64,000 nucleotides of DNA, taken from NCBI RefSeq assembly GCF_988243305.1, contig NZ_OZ547136.1, one strand, 5' to 3'. A program made the position numbers and the translations under genes. Shown here in pieces: positions 4,993-30,448 of this stretch (positions within the stretch are counted from its first letter, which is position 1; each line of letters starts with the position of its first letter). The notes under the pieces were generated by a model. It was not told the origin of the DNA, did no database searches, and saw nothing but the letters and a program-made list of their open reading frames with translations.

Positions 4993-6735
4993 TTAATACC
5001 CCGCCGTTAAATCATCCACCGAGCGCGGATCGGATGCACCGTACAGCTCACCGTCCGGCCCAACCATAATGCTTTGTGTACTGCCCATCGCCTCTTTCAG
5101 CGCCACTTTCTGACCTTTTGCTTCCAGCAGCTTGAGCGTATCCGGGCTAAACCCTTTTTCGACACGCAGCTCGTCCGGCAACCACTGATGGTGGAAACGC
5201 GGTGCATTGGTCGCTTCGGCGACATTCATACCATAATCGATGCTGTTCACCACCATTTGCAGCACGGTAGTGATAATCCGGCTCCCGCCAGGGCTACCGG
5301 TAACCAGCCAGGTTTTACCGTCTTTCACCACAATGGTTGGGGACATCGACGACAGCGGGCGTTTATTCGGCCCGACCGCGTTGGCGTCACCACCCACCAG
5401 CCCGTAAACGTTCGGTACGCCAGGTTTGGCGGAGAAATCATCCATTTGGTTATTAAGCAGAATACCGCTCTCGCCCGCGACAATGCCCGTCCCGAAGGTG
5501 GTGTTCAGCGTATAGGTCACCGCTACCGCGTTGCCGTCTTTATCCACCACTGAGTAATGGGTAGTTTGATTACTCTCATAAGGCGCAAGCTTGCCGGGGC
5601 GAATTTCGCTGGATGGCTTCGCTTTATTGATATCGATTTGATCGGCAATAGATTTGGCATAGGCTTTATTGGTCAGCGCCTGCCACGGAACTTTGACAAA
5701 ATCCGGGTCGCCAAGATATTCCGAGCGGTCGGCGTAGGCATATTTCTCAGCTTCTGCCATGATTTGCATCGCGTCGGCGCTGCCAAAGCCGTATTTCTTC
5801 ATATCGAAGTTTTCCAGAATATTGAGGATTTGTACGATATGGATCCCGCCGGAAGATGGCGGTGGCATGGAGTAAACCTGATACCCGCGATAATCGCCGC
5901 TTATTGGTGTGCGCTCGACCGCTTTATACGCCGCTAAATCTTCTTTCGTGATCAGGCCGCCGTTTTTCTGCATCTCCTGAGCGATCTGCTCCGCTATTGT
6001 GCCTTTATAGAATTCGTCCGGGCCATTTTCGGCAATCATCTCCAGGCTCTTTGCCAGGTTCGCCTGCACCAGTTTGTCGCCCTTTTTCAGCGGCTCGCCC
6101 TCTTTCCAGAAGATAGCCTTGCTGTTTTCGTGATTCGGCAACACTTCGCTACCGTAGGTTTTGAGATCGTCAGCCAACGCGTCGTTAACGATAAAACCAT
6201 CGCGTGCCAGTTTAAACGCTGGCTGCACCACTTTGTTTAACGGCATGGTGCCGTATTTATCCAACGCCAGCGAGAAACCTGCTACCGTACCGGGCGTACC
6301 AGAAGCCAGATGCGAAGTGAGTGATTTTTTGCTGTCCGGGTTACCCTGATCATCAAGGAACATATCGCGGGTCGCTTTGGCGGGTGCCATTTCGCGGAAA
6401 TCGATAGCGGTGGTATTGCCATTTTTCGAGCGGATTAACATAAAACCACCACCGCCCAGATTCCCTGCCTGCGGATGCGTTACCGCCAGCGCGTAGCCCA
6501 CCGCCACGGCGGCATCAACGGCATTCCCACCCTCCTTGAGGATATCCACGCCCACCTGAGTGGCAGTAGCATCTACAGACGCCACCATCCCCTGTTTCGC
6601 GCGTACCGGATGGAAGACATCTTCCTCCACGCCATAAGAAACAGGTGGCGGAGGAGGCGCGGCGGCGGCGCTAAAACAACTTCCTGAGAGCAGAGCAGCA
6701 ATGGCCACCCGGCGTAAAAACGTCGGTTTTATCAT
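4993..6735 (-). CDS. ggt: Gamma-glutamyltranspeptidase
   Basis: ORF 4993..6762; start placed at MIKPTFLRR (580 aa) as in E. coli Ggt; signal peptide present. Confidence 0.95.
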   Translation of the reverse strand: MIKPTFLRRVAIAALLSGSCFSAAAAPPPPPVSYGVEEDVFHPVRAKQGMVASVDATATQVGVDILKEGGNAVDAAVAVGYALAVTHPQAGNLGGGGFMLIRSKNGNTTAIDFREMAPAKATRDMFLDDQGNPDSKKSLTSHLASGTPGTVAGFSLALDKYGTMPLNKVVQPAFKLARDGFIVNDALADDLKTYGSEVLPNHENSKAIFWKEGEPLKKGDKLVQANLAKSLEMIAENGPDEFYKGTIAEQIAQEMQKNGGLITKEDLAAYKAVERTPISGDYRGYQVYSMPPPSSGGIHIVQILNILENFDMKKYGFGSADAMQIMAEAEKYAYADRSEYLGDPDFVKVPWQALTNKAYAKSIADQIDINKAKPSSEIRPGKLAPYESNQTTHYSVVDKDGNAVAVTYTLNTTFGTGIVAGESGILLNNQMDDFSAKPGVPNVYGLVGGDANAVGPNKRPLSSMSPTIVVKDGKTWLVTGSPGGSRIITTVLQMVVNSIDYGMNVAEATNAPRFHHQWLPDELRVEKGFSPDTLKLLEAKGQKVALKEAMGSTQSIMVGPDGELYGASDPRSVDDLTAGY

Positions 6736-6854
6736 CGTTATTCTCCAGAGATTAAGGGGCAACCCCAGCTAAGCCTGGTATATAACTCTGAATTAATCCT
6801 GATGATTGCAGGAAAGGAGTAAACTTAAAGAATATCTTCAGAGGAGGATACGCG

Positions 6855-7295
6855 ATGAAACGACTTCTGATTCTTACGGCACTCCTGCCGTTTGTCGGCT
6901 TTGCACAGCCCATTAATACTCTGAACAACCCTAACCAGCCGGGGTATCAGATCCCCAGTCAGCAGCGGATGCAAACCCAGATGCAAACGCAGCAAATCCA
7001 GCAAAAAGGGATGCTGAATCAGCAACTGAAAACGCAAACTCAGTTGCAACAACAGCATTTAGAAAACCAGATAAACAATAATTCACAGCGGGTGTTGCAG
7101 TCACAGCCGGGGGAGCGAAATCCCGCCCGGCAGCAAATGCTGCCCAACACCAACGGCGGGATGTTAAACAGCAACCGTAATCCGGATAGTTCGTTGAATC
7201 AGCAGCATATGCTGCCGGAGAGGAGAAACGGCGACATGCTGAATCAGCCCGGCACGCCGCAGCCTGATATACCGTTGAAAACTATTGGGCCGTAA
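6855..7295 (+). CDS. yhhA: Secreted Gln/Asn-rich protein YhhA (DUF2756)
   Basis: 146 aa with an N-terminal signal peptide and a low-complexity Q/N-rich body; 14-bp overlap with the convergent ugpQ. Confidence 0.85.
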
Positions 7296-8025
7296 AGTTC
7301 GGACCAATCACGTCAATCGCATCGGTGCAGATGCAATCCACGCCCCAGCGCAGCAACTCTGCCGCGCGCTGGGGTTTATTGACGGTATAAACCAGAATCC
7401 GTAATCCGGCGTCTTTCAACTGCATCACTCGCGCTTTATCGAGCAACTTATGATTGAGATGAATAGAGACGCAGCCCAGCCGCGCGGTCAGTTCTCGCCA
7501 GTCGTCGCGCCACTCATCAAGCAATAAACCGCGCGGCAGTTCTGGTACTGCTTGTTGCGCGGCTTCTAAAGCATCAATCTCAAACGATGACAGCAGCGGC
7601 GGCGTCATATCGGCCCACAGTTCGCGTGCCGCCAGCGCCACCATTTTGCCCGTTAATGGCCCGGTGCCAGTGGTAGGTTTGATTTCGATATTCGCCATCA
7701 TCCCGTGTTCGCGACAGCGTTCCGCCACCTGCGAAAGCAACGGCAGCGGCTCACCTTTAAACGCTTTGCTGTACCAACTGCCCGCATCCACGCGCAGTAA
7801 ATCCTGCCAGTTCAGTTCACCCGCGACGCCCCAGCCGTTGCTGGTACGTTCAAGATTGTCGTCATGGAGCAGGAAGATCTCGCCATCTTTCGATAACTTC
7901 GCGTCAAATTCGATCATCTTATGACCGTATTTTGCCCCAACGTCGATTGCCGCCAGGGTGTTTTCCGGGGCCAGCTTACCGCCACCACGATGAGCGACGA
8001 TGCGGGGATAAGGCCAGTTACTCAT
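7282..8025 (-). CDS. ugpQ: Glycerophosphodiester phosphodiesterase
   Basis: 247-aa ORF matching UgpQ; last gene of the ugp operon. Confidence 0.95.
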
Positions 8026-9092
8026 ACTCGTTGTCCTGTTTCACCATCAAAAAGATGCAGCTGATTTTCTGGCAGATGCAGCCACAGCGTGCTGCCTGCT
8101 GTCGGGCGCTCCTGATGCGCCAGCCGAACCACCAGCTTCTGTTCGCCCCAGCGTCCGTGCGCCAGATTATCAGCGCCGAGGATCTCCAGCGTGTCCATCA
8201 CCAGCGGTACGCCGCCTTCTGCCTGCGAGCTTAGCGCTATATGTTCCGGGCGAATGCCGAGAGTCATTTTACGCCCGGCATACTGACGGTAGCCACCGTT
8301 TAGCGGCAGCGCGATACCGCCGTCCAGTTCGAAATGCGTGCCTTCGTTATTCACACGCCCTGCCAGCAGATTCATCGCCGGACTGCCGATAAAACTCGCC
8401 ACAAACAGGCTGGCGGGCTTTTCGTACACTTCAACTGGCGTGCCAATCTGTTCGGCAACGCCGCCGTTCATCACCATTACTCGCTGGGCGAGCGTCATCG
8501 CTTCAACCTGATCGTGAGTAACGTAGAGTGAAGTCGTTTTCAGGCGACGGTGCAGCTGTTGCAGTTCAAGACGCATCTGCACACGCAACTTGGCATCGAG
8601 GTTAGAGAGCGGCTCATCAAACAGGAACACTGCCGGCTCACGCACAATCGCACGCCCCATCGCCACGCGCTGACGCTGACCGCCAGATAGCTCACGCGGG
8701 CGGCGCTTAAGCAGGCCGTCCAGCTCCAGAATGCGCGCCGCTTCTTTAACACGTTCGGCAATTTGTTGCTTGCCCATGCCGCGAATTTTCAGCCCCCACG
8801 CCATGTTCTCCTCTACGCTCATATGCGGATAGAGCGCGTAGTTCTGGAACACCATCGCAATCCCGCGATCTTTCGGCTCCATTTCGGTGACACGCTTGCG
8901 GTCGATCCAGATATCGCCCGTCGTTACCCGCTCCAGTCCGGCCACCATTCGCAATAACGTCGATTTCCCGCAGCCAGACGGCCCGACCATCACGATAAAT
9001 TCGCCATCCGCCACATCAAGGGTCAGCGGTTTAATGACCTGGGTTTTGCCATCCCAGCTTTTGGTTACTGCCTGTAATTTCAGTCCTGCCAT
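8022..9092 (-). CDS. ugpC: sn-glycerol-3-phosphate ABC transporter ATPase
   Basis: Walker [10 protein letters not shown] and ABC signature LSGGQRQR; start placed at MAGLKLQAV (356 aa), not at the ORF-track start. Confidence 0.95.
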
Positions 9093-9093
9093 C

Positions 9094-9939
9094 TTATTTC
9101 TCACTATCGACCAGGCCGCGCACGAAGGCACGCTGCATCACTAAAACAATCACTACTGGTGGGATCAGGGTTAACAACATCGCCGCCATCACCGAGTTCC
9201 ATTCCGTTGTGCCTTCGCCTGTGGCGATCATCCCTTTAATCCCTGCCACGGTGGTGCCGAGATCCACGTCGGTAATAATCAACAACGGCCACAAATACTG
9301 GTTCCAGCCGTAAATAAAGGTGATCACAAACAGCGCCGCCAGATTAGTTTTGGAGAGCGGAAAAACGATGTCGCAAAAGAAGCGCATTGGTGACGCACCG
9401 TCGATCCGCGCCGCTTCCACCAGCTCATCCGGCAGCGTCATAAAGAACTGGCGGAAAAGAAACGTGGCGGTCGCCGAGGCCATCAGCGGCAGCGTTAAAC
9501 CGGCGTAGCTGTCGAGCATCTTCAGGTTGGCGATGACTTCCACCGTCGGGAAGATACGCACTTCAACCGGCAACATCAGAGTAATAAAAATCATCCAGAA
9601 GAAGAGGTTACGCAGCGGAAAACGAAACCAGACAATGGCAAATGCCGAGAGCATCGAGACGGTAATTTTGCCGAGCGTAATGCTGAACGCCATCACAAAG
9701 CTGTTAAGCAACATCCGCCAGAAAGGCGCACTATTCGTGCCTACCCCGTTCACCCAGATGTTGTGGATGTTTTCCAGCAGATGTGGGCCGGGGATGAGCG
9801 TCATCGGCGCGGCGTAGACGGCCTGTTTATCCAGCGTCGCCGCGACAAACGCCACGTACAGCGGGAAGAGGATCACCGCGATCCCGAGGATCAGCATGGT
9901 ATGGCTGAATATCGTCAGCCACGGACGGTTCTCAATCAT
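9094..9939 (-). CDS. ugpE: sn-glycerol-3-phosphate ABC transporter permease
   Basis: 281-aa polytopic membrane protein matching UgpE. Confidence 0.95.
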
Positions 9940-10823
9940 TGGTAACGCACCTTGCTTTCAACATAGCGGAACTGCACCACCGTCAGCACGATGACGAGGA
10001 ACATCAACACCACCGACTGCGCGGCAGACGAAGCCAGATCCAGTCCGGTAAAGCCTTCGCGGTAGATCTTATAAATCAGCGTCGTGGTAGCCTGAACCGG
10101 CCCGCCGGACGTAGCGGCGTCGATCACCGGGAAGGTGTCGAAGAAGGCGTACACCAGGTTCACCACCAGCAGGAAAAAACTCACCGGAGCGATAAGCGGC
10201 AGAGCAATCTTAAAGAAGCGGCGAATCGGGCCTGCACCGTCGATGGCTGCGGCTTCGATCAACGAACGGGGAATGGATTGCAGCGCGGCATAGAAGAACA
10301 GAAAGTTGTAGCTAATTTGCTTCCACACCGAGGCAAACACCACCAGGAACATCGCCTGACCGCTGTTTTGCGCATGGTTCCAGTCGTAGCCGAACTCAGC
10401 GAGAAAATGGGTGATCAACCCGCGACCGGGATTAAACAGGAAGATCCATAATACGGCAGCAACGGCGGGAGCCACGGCATACGGCAGCAGCATTAAGGTT
10501 TGATAGAAACGGCTGCCGCGCACGATGTACTCCACCAGCGCCGCAAAGAACAGCGACACCAGCAAACCGCTGACGGTGACAAAGGTGCTGAATTTTATCG
10601 TCGTCCAGAAGGAGTCGAGATAGTAGCTGTCATGAAACAGCGTGACGAAGTTATCCAGGCCGACAAACTGGCTGGAGAAACCAAACGGATCGACGCTTTG
10701 CAGCGAGTACCACAACGCTTCGCCCGCAGGCCAGATAAAAAAGATAACGGTGATGATGAGCTGCGGCGCGACCAGCAAATAGGGCAGCCAGCGCGAGCGG
10801 AACACCGGACGGGATGATGACAT
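9936..10823 (-). CDS. ugpA: sn-glycerol-3-phosphate ABC transporter permease
   Basis: 295-aa membrane protein matching UgpA; 4-bp overlap with ugpE. Confidence 0.95.
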
Positions 10824-10845
10824 AGTTAAACTCTTCGTGTTGTGT

Positions 10846-10990
10846 TCCCCTCACCCCGGCCCTCTCCCCAAAGGGGCGAGGGAGAAAGGCGGTGCATACT
10901 TTCCCACCGAGCGAAGTTGCAAACCGACACGGCACCTGGATACCACGCCGATCGGTCCCCTCTCCCTTTGGGAGAGGGTTAGGGTGAGGG
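10846..10990. repeat. Pair of inverted GC-rich REP-like extragenic palindromic elements between ugpA and ugpB
   Basis: 10846-10890 ...CCCTCACCCCGGCCCTCTCCCCAAAGGGGCGAGGGAG and 10955-10990 GTCCCCTCTCCCTTTGGGAGAGGGTTAGGGTGAGGG in opposite orientation; a third copy lies at 30131-30172. Confidence 0.6.
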
Positions 10991-10998
10991 TAAGAGAA

Positions 10999-12315
10999 TT
11001 AAGACTTCGTAGACTGCTCAAAGCGGCGCAGTAACTGGTTCCCACGCTCAACGGCGGTATCCAGTGCCTGCTGTGGTGTCTTCTTACCGGTCCACACGCT
11101 CTCCAGCTCTTCATCCACAATCACGCGGATCTGCGGCATGTTGCCCAGACGCAGCCCTTTGGTGAACGGTAACGGCGGCTTATTCAGCATCTGACGCGTC
11201 GCGGTATCCGCCCCTGGGTTTTTCTCATAAAAACCCTGCTCACGGGTCAGGTCATACGCCGCTTTGGTGATTGGCAGATAACCAGTTTTCTGATGCCACT
11301 CGGCAGCGTTTTCTGGCTTCGCGAGGAAGTCGAGGAACTTCGCCACACCCGTATAAGTTTCTTTATCTTTACCCTGCATTACCCACAAGCTGGCTCCGCC
11401 GATAATGGCGTTTTGTGGCGCATCTTTCGCATCGGCGTCGTAAGGCATCATGCCTACGCCGTAGTTAAATTTGGCGTACTCGCGAATGTTGGCAAGAGAA
11501 CCGGAAGAGGCGGTGGTCATCGCGCAATCACCGTTATAGAACTTCTCAGTGGATTCATCCTTACGCCCGACGTAGCTGAAATCGCCCTTCTTGTTCATCT
11601 CTTCGAGCATAGCGATGTGTTTCACCTGCTCCGGCTTGTTGAACTCCAGCACCGCGTCTGTGCCGTCAAAGCCGTTGTTTTTGCTGGCAAACGGCAGACC
11701 GTTCCAGGCGCTAAAGTTTTCCAGTTGGATCCAGCCCTGCCAGCCGCTGGCGTAGCCGCACTTCATACCGGAGGCTTTCAGTTTTGCGGCATAGTCCGCC
11801 AGATCCTGCCAGGTTTTCGGCGGCTGTTCCGGGTCTAAACCGGCTTTCTTGAAGGCGTCTTTGTTGTAATAGAGAACGGGAGTCGAGCTGTTGAACGGCT
11901 GGGAGAGTAAGTGGCCGGTTTTGCTGTCGGAGTAGTAGCCTGAAACCGTCGGCACAAACTGCGACTCATCGAACTGAATCCCCGCCTCTTTAAACACGTC
12001 ATATACCGGTTTAATGGCCTTCGACGCCATCATGGTGGCGGTGCCAACTTCATAAACCTGCAAAATAGCCGGCGCGTTGCCGGTACGAAATGCGGCAATC
12101 CCCGCGCTTAAATTCTGTTCGTAGTTGCCTTTATAGGTCGGTACAATTTTGTAATCCGGGTTTTCGGCGTTAAAACGTTGGGCCAGAGAATCCACCTCTT
12201 TACCCAGTTCCCCTTCCATAGAATGCCAGAACGGAATGGTCGTCACTGCCTGTGCATTCCCCATTAACGCCAGTCCGAGCGCCAGTGCTGAAGCTGTATA
12301 ATGTAACGGTTTCAT
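10999..12315 (-). CDS. ugpB: sn-glycerol-3-phosphate periplasmic binding protein
   Basis: 438-aa ORF with signal peptide, matching UgpB. Confidence 0.95.
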
Positions 12316-12433
12316 CGTTTATCTCTCTTGTTGTACCGAATGCGCGAATTCACGCGTTTTATGCTCGCGGGGTAACATGACATGCTCGAATTACAGAAAA
12401 ATAACTTTTTTGTTACATTTGTAAGATAGTAAG

Positions 12434-12451
12434 GTGTCAGAAAGATGACAA
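12434..12451 (-). promoter_or_regulatory. Pho box (PhoB site) in the ugpB promoter
   Basis: Minus strand TTGTCAT-cttt-CTGACAC, two 7-bp repeats 4 bp apart as in CTGTCAT-N4-CTGTCAT; about 120-135 bp upstream of the ugpB ATG. Confidence 0.5.
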
Positions 12452-12510
12452 GGCGGTGACGGCGTGGGTGAGGGAAAATGGGAGATGGGGCACGGATAAT
12501 GCTACGTTGG

Positions 12511-12542
12511 GGAAAATTAACGCGCCAGAGACTATCTGGCGC
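12511..12542 (-). terminator. Putative rho-independent terminator of the 248-aa TPR-like gene
   Basis: GCGCCAG-atagtct-CTGGCGC hairpin followed on the minus strand by TTAATTTTCCCC, just after the ORF stop at 12548. Confidence 0.4.
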
Positions 12543-12547
12543 AGCGC

Positions 12548-13294
12548 TTACTGAACAATACTCTGCTTCAGCCGTTCATTGGCGGTCTTAATCCATTCCC
12601 GGTGGTGTTTTCTATAATGCGGTCTTGAGCGTTTAGCCGTATCAACCACGGCAACATACTGCTCGTTGGCTTCACGTAACCGACTCATTTTCGCCAGCAT
12701 TTCCGCATAATAAATACGCGCCTGCGGGCCGGGGTAATAAGAAATCAATACTTCAAACTCGCTTTCCGCATCAGCGTATTTTTCTTGTGCGGCTAACGTT
12801 CTGGCAAATAACAAATGCCCGTCTGCCGACTGAAAATCAGGGTTATAACGCATCACATCTTCCAGCGTCTGCTGACAGGCGGCGAACTCCTGAATAGCAA
12901 ACTGCGCCTGCGCCAGGCTGAGCATCATTGCCGCTTCATGGACGAATATCCCGCTTAACGCCTGCTGATAATGGGGAACGGCTTCGTGATAACGCCCCAG
13001 ACGCGCCAGTTCATTAGCCAACGCATAATGGTTTTGATTCGTCTCGGCAATCGCCATTTCTTCGGTTAATTTGCGCAGGTGGCGCTCAGGGTTGACTTTG
13101 TCCTGCAGGCGCATCAGCAAAGTATGCCCGTGACGGTCAGCGCCCGTTTCAGGCAGCATCACTATGACGAAATACGCCACGCAGCCAATCACCGGAAAAC
13201 AGAAAATGATAAAAATCCAGTACCGCTCTTGTCCGGTACGGTAAGCGTGAATACAGCAAAGCAGTTCAAGCATGACAACAACGGCATAATGCAT
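12548..13294 (-). CDS. Hypothetical membrane-anchored protein: N-terminal two-helix PLDc_N-like domain plus TPR-like helical repeats
   Basis: 248-aa ORF; hydrophobic N-terminus YRTGQERYWIFIIFCFPVIGCVAYFVIVMLPE then amphipathic repeats (YALANELARLGRYHEAVPHYQQAL...); lies between the liv terminator and ugp promoter; host-like GC content. Confidence 0.65.
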   Translation of the reverse strand: MHYAVVVMLELLCCIHAYRTGQERYWIFIIFCFPVIGCVAYFVIVMLPETGADRHGHTLLMRLQDKVNPERHLRKLTEEMAIAETNQNHYALANELARLGRYHEAVPHYQQALSGIFVHEAAMMLSLAQAQFAIQEFAACQQTLEDVMRYNPDFQSADGHLLFARTLAAQEKYADAESEFEVLISYYPGPQARIYYAEMLAKMSRLREANEQYVAVVDTAKRSRPHYRKHHREWIKTANERLKQSIVQ

Positions 13295-13370
13295 GGGAGG
13301 GAACCTTTCCGTGGCAAATAAGTGGTCTGGTTTTAATCCTCCCGGTCAGTTGAAACAAGTCTGTATACGG

Positions 13371-13402
13371 ACGAAAAGCCCGGCAGAACGTGGCTGCCGG
13401 GT
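13371..13402 (-). terminator. Rho-independent terminator after livF (end of liv operon)
   Basis: CCCGGCAG-ccacgt-TCTGCCGGG hairpin followed by CTTTTCGT on the minus strand, 11 bp after the livF stop. Confidence 0.55.
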
Positions 13403-13412
13403 ATTCGATAAT

Positions 13413-14126
13413 TTACCCGCCTAAATACGCACTTCTCACCGCTTCGTTCGCCAGTAGTGCATCACCAGTATCGGAGAGCACCACATGACCGTTTTCCAGC
13501 ACGTAGCCGCGATCCGCCAGCTTTAGCGCCTGGTTGGCGTTCTGCTCGACGAGGAAGATAGTCATCCCCTGCTCGCGCAGCTGCTCGATGGTGTCGAAAA
13601 TTTGCTGGATGATAATCGGCGCCAGTCCGAGCGAGGGTTCATCAAGCAACAACAAACGCGGGTTGCTCATCAGCGCACGACCAATCGCCAGCATCTGCTG
13701 TTCACCACCAGACATCGTTCCCGCCCGCTGAACACGGCGCTCATGTAGACGCGGAAACAGTTCATAGACCCACTTTATGCGCTCCTGAAACTGGTCGCGT
13801 TCGGCAAAAAAGCCGCCCATCGCCAGGTTCTCTTCCACCGTCATCCGCGAGAAGACGCGACGCCCTTCCGGGACAATCGCTACCGCTTCGCGCATGATTT
13901 TCGCCGTCTGCCAGTCGGTAATGTCTTTATCATCAAACACAATTCGCCCACTGGTGGCGCGCGGATCGCCGCATAACGTGCCGAGCAAGGTGGTTTTCCC
14001 CGCCCCGTTCGCGCCAATAAGGGTGACAATCTCGCCCTGATTGATATGCAGGCTCACCTCATGCAGCGCCTGGATTTTGCCGTAGTGGGCGCTGACTTTG
14101 TCAAAGGACAACATGACTTTTTCCAT
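13413..14126 (-). CDS. livF: Branched-chain amino acid ABC transporter ATPase
   Basis: Start placed at MEKVMLSFDKVSAHYG (237 aa); Walker A GANGAGKTT. Confidence 0.95.
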   Translation of the reverse strand: MEKVMLSFDKVSAHYGKIQALHEVSLHINQGEIVTLIGANGAGKTTLLGTLCGDPRATSGRIVFDDKDITDWQTAKIMREAVAIVPEGRRVFSRMTVEENLAMGGFFAERDQFQERIKWVYELFPRLHERRVQRAGTMSGGEQQMLAIGRALMSNPRLLLLDEPSLGLAPIIIQQIFDTIEQLREQGMTIFLVEQNANQALKLADRGYVLENGHVVLSDTGDALLANEAVRSAYLGG

Positions 14127-27829: not shown

Positions 27830-27838
27830 TAAAACTTG

Positions 27839-27860
27839 ACTCTGGAGTCGACTCCAGAGT
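27839..27860 (+). promoter_or_regulatory. ZntR (MerR-family) operator within the zntA promoter spacer
   Basis: Perfect palindrome ACTCTGGAGTCGACTCCAGAGT between a -35-like CTTGAC and a -10-like TATCCT, about 45 bp before the zntA ATG. Confidence 0.7.
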
Positions 27861-27902
27861 GTATCCTTCGGTTAATGAGAAAAAACTTAACCGGAGGATG
27901 CC

Positions 27903-30101
27903 ATGTCGACTCCTGACAATCACGGCAAGAAAGCCCCTCAATTTGCTGCGTTCAAACCGCTAACCAAGGTACAGAACGCCAACGACTGTTGCTGCGACGG
28001 CGCATGTTCCAGCACGCCAACGCTCTCTGAAAACGTCTCCGGCACCCGCTATAGCTGGAAAGTCAGCGGCATGGACTGCGCCGCCTGTGCGCGCAAGGTA
28101 GAAAATGCCGTGCGCCAGCTTGCAGGCGTGAATCAGGTGCAGGTACTGTTCGCCACCGAAAAACTGGTGGTTGATGCCGACAATGACATCCGTGCACAAG
28201 TTGAATCTGCGGTGCAAAAAGCGGGCTATTCCCTGCGCGATGAACAGTCCGCCGACGAACCGCAAGCATCACGCCTGAAAGAGAATTTGCCGCTGATTAC
28301 GCTAATCGTGTTGATGGCAATCAGTTGGGGGCTGGAACAGTTTAATCATCCGTTCGGGCAACTGGCGTTTATCGCGACCACGCTGGTTGGGCTGTACCCG
28401 ATTGCTCGTCAGGCATTACGGCTGATCAAATCCGGCAGCTACTTCGCTATTGAAACCTTAATGAGCGTAGCCGCTATTGGTGCACTGTTTATTGGCGCAA
28501 CGGCTGAAGCTGCGATGGTGTTGCTGCTGTTTTTGATTGGTGAACGACTGGAAGGCTGGGCCGCCAGCCGCGCGCGTCAGGGCGTTAGCGCGTTAATGGC
28601 GCTGAAACCAGAAACCGCCACGCGCCTGCGTAACGGTGAGCGTGAAGAGGTGGCGATTAACAGCCTGCGCCCTGGCGATGTGATTGAAGTCGCCGCAGGT
28701 GGACGTTTGCCTGCCGACGGTAAACTGCTCTCACCGTTTGCCAGTTTTGATGAAAGCGCCCTGACCGGCGAATCCATTCCTGTGGAGCGCGCGACGGGCG
28801 AAAAAGTTCCTGCAGGAGCCACCAGCGTAGACCGTCTGGTAACGCTGGAAGTGCTGTCAGAACCGGGTGCCAGCGCCATTGACCGGATTCTGAAACTGAT
28901 CGAAGAAGCCGAAGAGCGTCGCGCCCCCATTGAGCGGTTTATCGACCGTTTCAGCCGTATCTACACGCCCGCGATTATGGCCGTCGCCCTGCTGGTAACG
29001 CTGGTGCCGCCGCTGCTGTTTGCCGCCAGCTGGCAAGAGTGGATTTATAAAGGGCTGACGCTGCTGCTGATTGGTTGCCCGTGTGCGTTAGTTATCTCCA
29101 CGCCCGCGGCGATTACCTCCGGGCTGGCGGCAGCAGCGCGTCGTGGGGCGTTGATTAAAGGCGGTGCGGCGCTGGAACAACTAGGTCGTGTTACCCAGGT
29201 GGCGTTTGATAAAACCGGTACCCTGACCGTCGGTAAACCGCGCGTTACCGCGATTCATCCGGCAACGGGTATTAGTGAATCCGAACTGCTGACACTGGCG
29301 GCGGCGGTCGAGCAAGGCGCGACGCATCCACTGGCGCAAGCCATTGTGCGCGAAGCACAGGTTGCTGAACTCGCCATTCCCGCCGCCCAATCACAGCGGG
29401 CGCTGGTTGGGTCTGGCATTGAAGCGCAGGTTAACGGTGAGCGCGTGTTGATATGCGCTGCCGGAAAACATCCGGCTGTTGCATTTGCTGGTTTGATTAA
29501 TGAACTGGAAAGCGCCGGGCAAACGGTAGTGCTGGTAGTGCGTAACGATGACGTGCTTGGCGTAATTGCATTGCAGGATACCCTGCGCGCCGATGCTGCA
29601 ACTGCCATCAGTGAACTGAACGCGCTGGGCGTCAAAGGGGTGATCCTCACCGGCGATAATCCACGCGCAGCGGCGGCAATTGCCGGGGAGTTGGGGCTGG
29701 AGTTTAAAGCGGGCCTGTTGCCGGAAGATAAAGTCAAAGCGGTGACCGAGCTGAATCAACATGCGCCGCTGGCGATGGTCGGTGATGGTATTAACGACGC
29801 GCCAGCGATGAAAGCCGCCGCTATTGGGATTGCAATGGGCAGTGGCACAGACGTGGCCCTGGAAACCGCCGACGCAGCATTAACCCATAACCACCTGCGC
29901 GGCCTGGTGCAAATGATTGAACTGGCACGCGCCACTCACGCCAATATCCGCCAGAACATCACTATTGCGCTGGGGCTGAAAGGGATCTTCCTCGTCACCA
30001 CACTTTTAGGGATGACCGGACTGTGGCTGGCAGTGCTGGCAGATACCGGTGCGACGGTGCTGGTGACGGCGAATGCGTTAAGGCTGTTGCGCAGGAAATA
30101 A
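27903..30101 (+). CDS. zntA: Zn/Cd/Pb-exporting P-type ATPase
   Basis: 732 aa; N-terminal metal-binding GMDCAAC, CPC motif (IGCPCALVISTP), DKTGT phosphorylation site. Confidence 0.97.
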   Translation: MSTPDNHGKKAPQFAAFKPLTKVQNANDCCCDGACSSTPTLSENVSGTRYSWKVSGMDCAACARKVENAVRQLAGVNQVQVLFATEKLVVDADNDIRAQVESAVQKAGYSLRDEQSADEPQASRLKENLPLITLIVLMAISWGLEQFNHPFGQLAFIATTLVGLYPIARQALRLIKSGSYFAIETLMSVAAIGALFIGATAEAAMVLLLFLIGERLEGWAASRARQGVSALMALKPETATRLRNGEREEVAINSLRPGDVIEVAAGGRLPADGKLLSPFASFDESALTGESIPVERATGEKVPAGATSVDRLVTLEVLSEPGASAIDRILKLIEEAEERRAPIERFIDRFSRIYTPAIMAVALLVTLVPPLLFAASWQEWIYKGLTLLLIGCPCALVISTPAAITSGLAAAARRGALIKGGAALEQLGRVTQVAFDKTGTLTVGKPRVTAIHPATGISESELLTLAAAVEQGATHPLAQAIVREAQVAELAIPAAQSQRALVGSGIEAQVNGERVLICAAGKHPAVAFAGLINELESAGQTVVLVVRNDDVLGVIALQDTLRADAATAISELNALGVKGVILTGDNPRAAAAIAGELGLEFKAGLLPEDKVKAVTELNQHAPLAMVGDGINDAPAMKAAAIGIAMGSGTDVALETADAALTHNHLRGLVQMIELARATHANIRQNITIALGLKGIFLVTTLLGMTGLWLAVLADTGATVLVTANALRLLRRK

Positions 30102-30130
30102 GGCAAACCGATCGCAACATTGAGCGCGAT

Positions 30131-30172
30131 CGGTCCCCTCGCTCCTCTGGGGAGAGGGTTAGGGTGAGGGGA
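30131..30172. repeat. REP-like GC-rich palindromic element between convergent zntA and tusA
   Basis: CGGTCCCCTCGCTCCTCTGGGGAGAGGGTTAGGGTGAGGGG, near-identical to the copy at 10955-10990. Confidence 0.6.
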
Positions 30173-30202
30173 AAAGGCGGCATCGAAGCCAATCAGCCCC
30201 CA

Positions 30203-30448
30203 TCAACCGCCTTTGCGAATCAAATAACGATAAGGCAGTCCATCCGTCTCTTTAGCAACCAGTTCGTGTTCCATAAAGGTACAAAACCCAGGAATATCGC
30301 GGGTAGTGGCCGGATCGTCGGCGATAATCAGCAACGTTTCGCCAGGCTGCATATTGCGCACGGTTTTGCGCACCATCATCACCGGTTCCGGGCAGCGCAG
30401 GCCAAGCGCGTCGAGTGTGTGGTCAGGGCTGGAAAAGAGATCGGTCAT
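30203..30448 (-). CDS. tusA: Sulfur carrier protein TusA
   Basis: 81-aa ORF with the [11 protein letters not shown] active-site cysteine motif. Confidence 0.95.

Follow-up and report, generated by a model that had tools for sequence, protein, structure and literature searches.

We find that the three GC-rich repeats in the window (the whole 64-kb stretch of DNA analyzed here) are, judged by their sequences, members of the BoxC family, also known as PIT or TMECO, and are distinct from REP elements. Two of the copies form an inverted pair in the gap between ugpB and ugpA, and the third lies between zntA and tusA. We hold the BoxC identity of the repeats and the inverted A/B architecture of the ugp pair, taken together, with very high confidence, and we consider our explanation as a whole, which is weighted mostly toward identity, architecture, and distribution, to be likely. 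BoxC is an established family, and the copy between zntA and tusA has itself been catalogued individually. The dimorphism of the ugpB-ugpA slot, which is filled with a REP pair in some genomes and a BoxC pair in others, is a small new observation as far as we have checked.

BoxC, PIT, and TMECO are three historical names for the same motif (Holder et al. 2015, NAR, PMC4666352). The name BoxC dates from the 1990s (Bergler 1992, Bachellier 1990s), and the element is quoted as 56 bp long and present in ~32 copies; PIT denotes “potential intrastrand triplex” elements (Hoyne and Maher 2000, 2002). The family consists of non-coding enterobacterial repeats of ~36-56 bp, each made of three blocks with short loops between them: one that is C-rich, one that is G-rich and complementary to it, and another that is also G-rich. 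The first two blocks make up a hairpin, and the second G-rich block can serve as the third strand of an intrastrand purine-motif triplex, in which it runs antiparallel to the purine block and the triads G·G:C, A·A:T, and T·A:T are allowed (PMC4666352). A total of 63 TMECO loci have been catalogued (PMC4666352).

The three copies in the window were located with a 21-nt core query, GGGAGAGGGTTAGGGTGAGGG, with up to 3 mismatches allowed and 100 dinucleotide-preserving shuffles of the window as a control. The core matched at 10848-10868 (minus strand, as GGGAGAGGGCCGGGGTGAGGG), 10970-10990 (plus strand), and 30150-30170 (plus strand), and none of the 100 shuffles contained a match. Each match is part of a motif of the form GGGAGAGGG-(TTA/CCG)-GGGTGAGGG, which occurs three times in the 64-kb window compared to a chance expectation of 0. 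All three copies are intergenic, and clear homology is apparent when they are aligned together with their flanks. The first-pass annotation had described a GC-rich, partly palindromic family of extragenic repeats with three related copies, two of them inverted between ugpA and ugpB and one between zntA and tusA, and these matches and their coordinates bear this out. Its description of the motif holds for a sequence present in three copies and fails for the segment between the G-rich blocks of the left ugp copy, which is CCG and not TTA. A further partial match at 12454-12474, with 2 mismatches, covers only blocks 2 and 3 and lacks the C-rich block; we took it to be a chance occurrence.

The assignment to BoxC is based on agreement with the published TMECO consensus, CCCTCNCCC-N3-6-GGGNGAGGG-N3-GGGNGAGGG (Holder et al. 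2015, PMC4666352). Both ugp copies match this consensus exactly, at 10848-10882 on the minus strand and 10958-10990 on the plus strand, and the zntA-tusA copy is one base off the strict consensus in block 1 (CCCTCGCTC), with blocks 2 and 3 intact. When the copies were compared with the 23 K-12 copies in Table 1 of PMC4666352, the left ugp copy (10847..10882, minus strand, CCCTCGCCCCTTTGGGGAGAGGGCCGGGGTGAGGGG) was identical to K-12 TMECO 3 at 36/36 positions. This copy is of type B with one mismatch in the stem (“B mm”), and the published “B mm” oligonucleotide has the same sequence. The right ugp copy (10958..10991, plus strand, CCCTCTCCCTTTGGGAGAGGGTTAGGGTGAGGGT) is of type A with perfect stems and is identical to K-12 TMECO 2 at 33/35 positions. 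The copy between zntA and tusA (30136..30171, plus strand, CCCTCGCTCCTCTGGGGAGAGGGTTAGGGTGAGGGG) is of type A “mm” with one extra substitution, and is identical at 35/36 positions to the sequence of K-12 copies 16, 9, 19, and 22. The two ugp copies differ in the second loop, which is TTA in the right copy and CCG in the left; since CCG stands between its G-rich blocks, the left copy belongs to the recognised type B variant. Pairing in the hairpin varies, with Watson-Crick pairs at 8/9 positions in the left ugp copy, 9/9 in the right ugp copy, and 7/9 in the zntA-tusA copy. The purine-motif triad rules, which are compatible with reverse-Hoogsteen pairing and serve here as a sequence rule only, are obeyed at 9/9 positions in each of the three copies. 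This triplex-capable third G-rich block, which defines the family, had gone unrecognised in the earlier description.

The distribution of the motif is that of a dispersed chromosomal repeat. The 165-bp pair, used as a query, matched 101,252 places distributed over 5,400 of the 5,426 complete E. coli genomes; the per-genome median is 21, and only 68 of these places are on plasmids. The genome-wide enrichment expected of such a family is therefore present. A search of Rfam in E-value mode with positions 10000-12000 yielded only sub-threshold chance matches, the best being whalefall-1 at 17.7 bits compared to a gathering score of 37, and we found no Rfam family for the BoxC element. In the accessible part of the supplement of Holder et al. 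2015 (PMC4666352), the term “ugp” does not appear. The copies in the window do not differ in kind from catalogued BoxC/TMECO elements; what sets the ugpB-ugpA locus apart is its absence as a BoxC site from K-12, which has a REP pair there.

The third copy occupies a site already on record. In Suppl. Table S2 of PMC4666352, TMECO 16 is placed between zntA and tusA, 33 and 31 nt from these genes. The copy described here lies 34 nt from the stop codon of zntA (27903-30101, plus strand) and 31 nt from the stop codon of the convergent gene tusA (30203-30448, minus strand), and is orthologous to TMECO 16. The 5' extension of this copy is adjoined and overlapped by a terminator-like hairpin at 30105..30136 on the minus strand (GGACCGATCGCGCTCAATGTTGCGATCGGTTT followed by GCCTTATTTC), which is a candidate terminator of tusA. 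It is the only terminator-like site in 30000-30300, and in the predicted RNA structure it stands apart as a 9-bp hairpin of its own.

The ugp pair separates a gene for a periplasmic binding protein from a gene for a permease. According to the open reading frames of the window and the annotation of matching E. coli records, ugpB (10999-12315, minus strand) lies directly upstream of the pair on the mRNA and ugpA (9936-10823, minus strand) directly downstream, leaving an intergenic gap of 175 nt (10824-10998, minus strand). The two copies form an inverted pair; their 42-nt arms, at 10840-10881 and 10957-10998, show 74% complementarity and are separated by 75 nt. On the ugp mRNA, the UAA stop codon of ugpB is followed by 8 unpaired nt, the complement of the type A copy, the 75-nt spacer, the type B copy, a 24-nt leader, and the AUG of ugpA. 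The type A complement is C-rich and reads CCCUCACCC-UAA-CCCUCUCCC-AAA-GGGAGAGGG, and the type B copy, in its G-rich sense orientation, reads CCCUCGCCCC-UUU-GGGGAGAGGG-CCG-GGGGUGAGGGG.

This composition agrees with what is known of BoxC pairs. Paired TMECOs are inverted and always combine one type A (TTA) with one type B (CCG) copy, as seen in 5 K-12 pairs (PMC4666352). The ugp pair, too, sets a type A copy head-to-head with a type B copy, in the same arrangement as the K-12 pair TMECO 17/18 between lldD and trmL. The TTA/CCG difference prevents the arms from forming a perfect long palindrome, and this imperfection may be the reason that only pairs of A plus B survive. The spacer between the two copies (10883..10957) has two kinds of sequence. 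Its ends are conserved BoxC 5' extensions, CGCCGATCGGT beside the type A copy and GCCTTTCT beside the type B copy, which are shared with K-12 TMECO 17/18 (CGCCGAnCGGT by type A, GCC…CTTTCT by type B) and also align with the zntA-tusA copy. Its middle is lineage-specific, with no counterpart in the BoxC-type gaps of other genera.

The first-pass annotation had called the repeats REP-like, a label that we replace with BoxC. The REP consensus, an imperfect palindrome of the GCCGGATG...CTTATCCGGCCTAC type, is absent from the BoxC sites, and a REP-tail pattern with up to 2 mismatches allowed matched the whole window only once, at 61766, and at none of the three repeats. The two families resemble each other in being extragenic, multi-copy, and GC-rich with partial dyad symmetry, in forming inverted pairs, and in giving a long GC-rich RNA stem 8-10 nt past a stop codon, and both REP/BIME (PU) and BoxC pairs are found in the same slot after the gene for the binding protein of an ABC importer. 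These likenesses, together with the presence of true REPs in this slot in other strains, are what would recommend treating the window copies as REPs that work in the classical way. Their sequences, however, are unrelated to REPs, the REP-containing gap of K-12 cannot be aligned with the one described here, and the three-block architecture, with a third G-rich block and triplex potential, is found in BoxC only. BoxC also numbers ~20 copies per genome compared to hundreds for REP, and the literature treats BoxC and PU-BIME as separate families. We consider membership in the REP family extremely improbable. We know of no link between BoxC and RAYT/TnpA_REP.

Two other classes of element share some features with the pair. 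Miniature inverted-repeat elements (MITEs) such as ERIC/IRU are like the BoxC composite in having a length of ~145 bp, terminal inverted arms, and a long RNA hairpin. In contrast to MITEs, the borders of the pair (…TGTGTT | … | AAGAGA…) have no target-site duplication, single BoxC copies are common, and, to our knowledge, there is no cognate transposase for BoxC. We rejected the interpretation of the pair plus spacer as a MITE on the basis of the missing target-site duplication and of spacers that are unrelated between taxa and loci; since the spacer between the arms is not conserved across loci, the pair is not a discrete mobile unit. Consistent with this, no association of TMECO with mobile elements has been reported (PMC4666352). 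Rho-independent terminators are also GC-rich hairpins downstream of a stop codon, and differ from the ugp pair in that no U-tract follows the ugp stem on the mRNA strand. In published assays, moreover, PIT elements had neither promoter nor terminator activity and left RNA polymerase unaffected (Hoyne and Maher, as related in PMC4666352). Our scans of both strands of 10600-11200 gave no terminator-like site, and no promoter consensus was found in the ugp gap.

The claim that the repeats can form stable RNA hairpins is upheld by structure prediction. Folded as mRNA, the whole ugp gap has a predicted minimum free energy of -87.3 kcal/mol (z = -5.0) and forms a single long stem-loop closed by base pairs between the type A complement and the type B copy. 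Between the ugpB stop codon and the predicted stem there are 8 nt, and between the stem and the ugpA ATG there are 24 nt. Of the window's 18 intergenic gaps in the size range of 50-320 nt, the ugp gap is the most stable per nucleotide (-0.50 kcal/mol/nt, z = -6.7), nearly equaled by the gap that contains the zntA promoter (-0.49 kcal/mol/nt, z = -9.4). The zntA promoter gap contains a perfect palindrome. Any inverted pair inserted in a gap yields a strongly negative folding z, and structure alone is therefore not proof of selection.

Within E. coli, the ugpB-ugpA gap exists in two forms. The BoxC pair is found in 317 of 5426 complete genomes (~6%) and an inverted REP pair in 5105 (94%), such that two allele classes account for 5422/5426 genomes. 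The gap in K-12 belongs to the REP class, with 97 bp and an inverted pair of classical REPs. Folded as RNA, the K-12 REP pair is predicted to reach -50 kcal/mol (z = -6.2), with a stem that begins 10 nt past the stop codon. The BoxC allele and its junction with ugp are 100% identical in at least 60 E. coli genomes. The window itself is E. coli DNA, with a ugp junction that many complete genomes of the species match at 100% identity. The segment that has been replaced is the gap itself, and the coding flanks of 90 nt are 94-98% identical to K-12. We considered whether the BoxC allele was imported from another genus on a long recombination tract and rejected this, given that the flanking 90 nt of coding sequence have 94-98% identity to K-12 compared to 80-92% for other genera. 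A K/Q difference at the C terminus of UgpB is independent of the gap type. We found no usable data in the literature on REPs or 3' ends at ugpB/ugpA.

The same two kinds of repeat recur in this slot across genera. Using UgpA as the query and one genome per species, we took the gap from 49 Enterobacterales and outgroup genomes. A BoxC pair in the same position and orientation as in the window is present in a Pseudocitrobacter MAG, Pluralibacter sp. UBA7423, Kluyvera genomosp. 1, Superficieibacter electus, Enterobacteriaceae RIT691, and Enterobacter cloacae DSM 26481. A REP pair is present in the E. coli representative genome, E. albertii, Pseudocitrobacter faecalis, three Citrobacter, Pseudescherichia, Cedecea, and others, and in Leclercia the loop of a REP pair encloses a BoxC-like unit. 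Collapsed or degenerate BoxC gaps occur in Enterobacter BIGb0383, which has a collapsed version, and in P. gergoviae, and the hairpin is still kept in both. Such retention of the hairpin by collapsed variants has been described as the “palindrome effect” (Holder et al., PMC4666352).

The BoxC-type gaps of the 6 other taxa have a common geometry. The type A complement begins 9-15 nt past the stop codon, and 22-42 nt separate the end of the type B copy from the ugpA ATG; the arms match perfectly in blocks 2 and 3, with a mismatch in loop 2 in every case. Spacer lengths run from 12 to 209 nt, and the spacer sequences show no conservation. In Pluralibacter UBA7423 and RIT691, a T-to-A change is found in block 3 of both copies, which fits either maintained pairing or concerted evolution and was probably a single event in these two genomes. 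Repeat type and ugpA leader go together: the leader in REP gaps is …TTCAGGAA…, and that in most BoxC gaps is a …AGAGTTTAACT-like ending, with RIT691 as an exception. The ugpA leader in the window is nearly identical to that of Kluyvera. The BoxC-pair allele together with a leader ending in AGAGTTTAACT is common to the window and Kluyvera and, less closely, to other Enterobacteriaceae genera.

Almost every Enterobacteriaceae gap that we examined folds strongly. The folding z is at or below -4 in 21 of the 24 Enterobacteriaceae-type gaps, whichever repeat forms the stem, and is weaker in more distant Enterobacterales, falling to ~0 in Erwinia, Pectobacterium, and Dickeya. The gaps of these last three genera are unstructured, and the hairpin is therefore not universally required. 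The orientation of the pair relative to transcription is alike in the ugp gaps of 7 taxa and in K-12 lldD-trmL. A head-to-head pair between phnK and phnL in E. coli strain NT1W25 has the opposite orientation to transcription, which rules out a fixed orientation and means that there is no orientation rule such as a strand-specific RNA function might impose.

How might the pair act on ugp expression? RNA does not form purine-motif triplexes, as stated in the introduction of Holder et al. (PMC4666352), and therefore the RNA hairpin is what would matter at this level. On the polycistronic mRNA, the type B copy would pair with the type A complement to create a very stable stem-loop. This stem-loop could be a barrier to 3'-to-5' exonucleases that shields the upstream ugpB segment, such that ugpB would outlast ugpAEC. 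The most likely effect would be that of the REP pair it replaces. REPs reportedly stabilise upstream mRNA, as in malE-malF (Newbury et al. in 1987), and we know of no published evidence or experiment that ties BoxC to mRNA stability. Given the same slot and the shared features of pair and stem, a BoxC pair plausibly works like a REP pair. We tentatively favor, by analogy, a REP-equivalent role in setting the ratio of ugpB to ugpAEC. That the element has some selected effect on ugp expression is a possibility that we take seriously while stopping short of calling it probable. A hairpin after ugpB that acts in mRNA stability or gene coupling is plausible in that the evidence fits it, and this fit is not proof. 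The differential stabilisation of ugpB mRNA suggested in the first-pass annotation has indirect support in the strong stem-loop that occupies the slot in nearly all Enterobacteriaceae, whichever family provides it, and in the high rank of the ugp gap for structure within the window. Speaking against polarity or termination are the missing U-tract, the reported lack of promoter and terminator activity, and the lack of a bias in operon position. It is also conceivable, and in our view somewhat unlikely, that the ugpB-ugpA junction is selected for any very stable stem-loop ~10 nt past the stop codon, with REP and BoxC pairs as interchangeable alleles; both haplotypes, with their linked leaders, may then persist or be exchanged across several Enterobacteriaceae genera.

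The main rival to a selected role is that the pair is neutral or selfish DNA in one of the few gaps within operons that tolerate insertions, with the dimorphism resulting from the instability and turnover of TMECOs. Much of the variation described above agrees with neutrality: the gap is wholly replaced between the E. coli alleles, the spacers vary in length and sequence, collapsed or degenerate versions occur in two lineages, and BoxC pairs are found in either orientation to transcription. The published record points in the same direction, with intergenic changes between E. coli strains at 39% of TMECO loci compared to <1% of controls, no function found, no bias in position relative to ORFs or operons, and no common function among adjoining genes (PMC4666352), in addition to the absence of promoter and terminator activity. 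However, neutrality does not readily explain why two unrelated repeat families should provide a strong stem-loop in almost every Enterobacteriaceae genome examined, why the stem should always begin 8-15 nt past the stop codon and leave 22-42 nt for the ribosome-binding site of ugpA, or why the hairpin should be kept even in collapsed variants. We regard neutrality as a substantial possibility that falls short of being probable.

A role at the level of DNA would place the action of the element in a transient intrastrand triplex, or a cruciform made by the pair, on single-stranded DNA during replication, repair, or transcription, which would stall polymerases and promote deletion, mutation, or recombination, making the locus a hotspot of variation. 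The adherence of all three copies to the triad rules would allow this, as would the behavior of TMECO oligonucleotides in vitro, which form triplexes with melting temperatures of 70-82 C, as demonstrated by CD and NMR for oligonucleotides of these types, and block polymerase in primer extension (PMC4666352). The association of TMECO loci with variability and the dimorphism of the ugp gap in E. coli are likewise in line with it. In vivo, though, DMS footprinting revealed no protection, and double-stranded TMECO behaved as duplex DNA (PMC4666352). The perfect identity of the BoxC allele across many E. coli genomes, and the existence of just two allele classes, are also unlike an unstable site, and we judge an effect of this kind to be improbable. 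If the RNA hairpin is instead what acts, it could conceivably lower UgpB synthesis, with a stem so close to the stop codon hindering the terminating ribosome and leading to stalling, mRNA cleavage, and trans-translation. When REP hairpins lie <16 nt from a stop codon, the upstream gene is translated less (Liang et al. 2015, as related in PMC12306157), and the stem is within this distance in the BoxC allele (8 nt), the REP allele (10 nt), and other genera (9-15 nt). This effect is known from REPs and not from BoxC. ABC importers normally require more of the binding protein than of the membrane components, which would make down-regulation of ugpB counter-intuitive; we think it improbable that the pair acts mainly in this way.

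For the annotation of this locus, the useful correction is the name of the family and the recognition of its triplex-capable third block. The comparative results add modestly to this in showing that the same intra-operon slot is filled with either a REP or a BoxC pair, both in E. coli and across genera. The two alleles offer a natural, isogenic-style test of whether BoxC has a function at the RNA level, which has not been established in 25 years, and also allow a test of the functional equivalence of REP and BoxC. If the reading of the slot as one in which the two repeats are interchangeable is true, BoxC would for the first time have a physiological role, modulating mRNA stability or gene coupling as an equivalent of REP.

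The gap between ugpB and ugpA occurs in two haplotypes, as seen by comparing window positions 10824-10998 with the K-12 ugp locus (L001, 4913-5009) and with the gap loci of other genomes (L004-L048). The REP haplotype consists of an inverted REP pair followed by a ugpA leader containing …TTCAGGAA…, and the BoxC haplotype of an inverted BoxC pair with a leader that mostly resembles …AGAGTTTAACT. E. coli segregates for the two: the REP haplotype was found in 5105 of the 5426 complete genomes searched, versus 317 for the BoxC haplotype. Both are also found in several further genera of the Enterobacteriaceae, and within a single genus in the case of Pseudocitrobacter (L006 versus L007).

In the ugpB-ugpA gap of a metagenome-assembled genome of Leclercia adecarboxylata (L016), a degenerate BoxC-like unit (CCCTCATCCCAACCCTCTCCCACAGGGAGAGGGAG) is located inside the loop between the arms of the REP pair, and the gap folds at -92 kcal/mol with an RNA folding z-score of -9.5. 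The gap of Superficieibacter electus (L018) reaches 308 nt because the spacer that separates its two BoxC copies holds a tandem duplication of approximately 115 nt, itself containing a partial BoxC unit. The Kluyvera gap (L014) likewise has a partial copy of BoxC in its interior.

A further head-to-head BoxC pair within a Pho-regulon operon was observed in the phnK-phnL gap of E. coli NT1W25 (L085, 601-713). Its orientation relative to transcription is opposite to that of the ugp pair, with the complement of a type B unit (CCG loop) followed by a type A unit (TTA loop). We believe that the coordinates of the K-12 BoxC (TMECO) element #22 fall within the phn operon. The K-12 list places one TMECO (#22) at approximately 93 min (PMC4666352).

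Directly adjoining the zntA-tusA copy of BoxC is a terminator-like hairpin (30105-30136, minus strand) that carries a T-rich tail and reads in the direction of tusA. This hairpin, which is likely the tusA terminator as predicted from its sequence, has CGATCGG in common with the 5' extension of the BoxC copy. The most significant fold among the gaps of the window lies at 27830-27902 (z = -9.4), just upstream of zntA, where TTGACT and TATCCT flank a perfect palindrome, ACTCTGGAGTCGACTCCAGAGT, which we take to be the ZntR (MerR-type) operator of the zntA promoter.

Upstream of ugpB, CGGTGACGGCGTGGGTGAGGG (12454-12474, plus strand) fits BoxC blocks 2 and 3 with two mismatches and is without the C-rich block; the match is probably due to chance. 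The 250-nt bin that holds it (12251-12500) has zero substitutions relative to K-12. Identity to K-12 is 97.8% across ugpB and its upstream region, and only 95.7% over the stretch that runs from a point inside yhhA to the start of ugpA (window 6501-14000 compared). Judged from these alignments, the ugp operon of this strain is rather divergent for E. coli. Between ugpB and livF lies a gene for a 248-aa tetratricopeptide-repeat protein (12548-13294, minus strand) that is absent from K-12. This gene is present in 659 of the 5426 E. coli genomes, O157:H7 among them, and its distribution is therefore unlike that of the BoxC allele.
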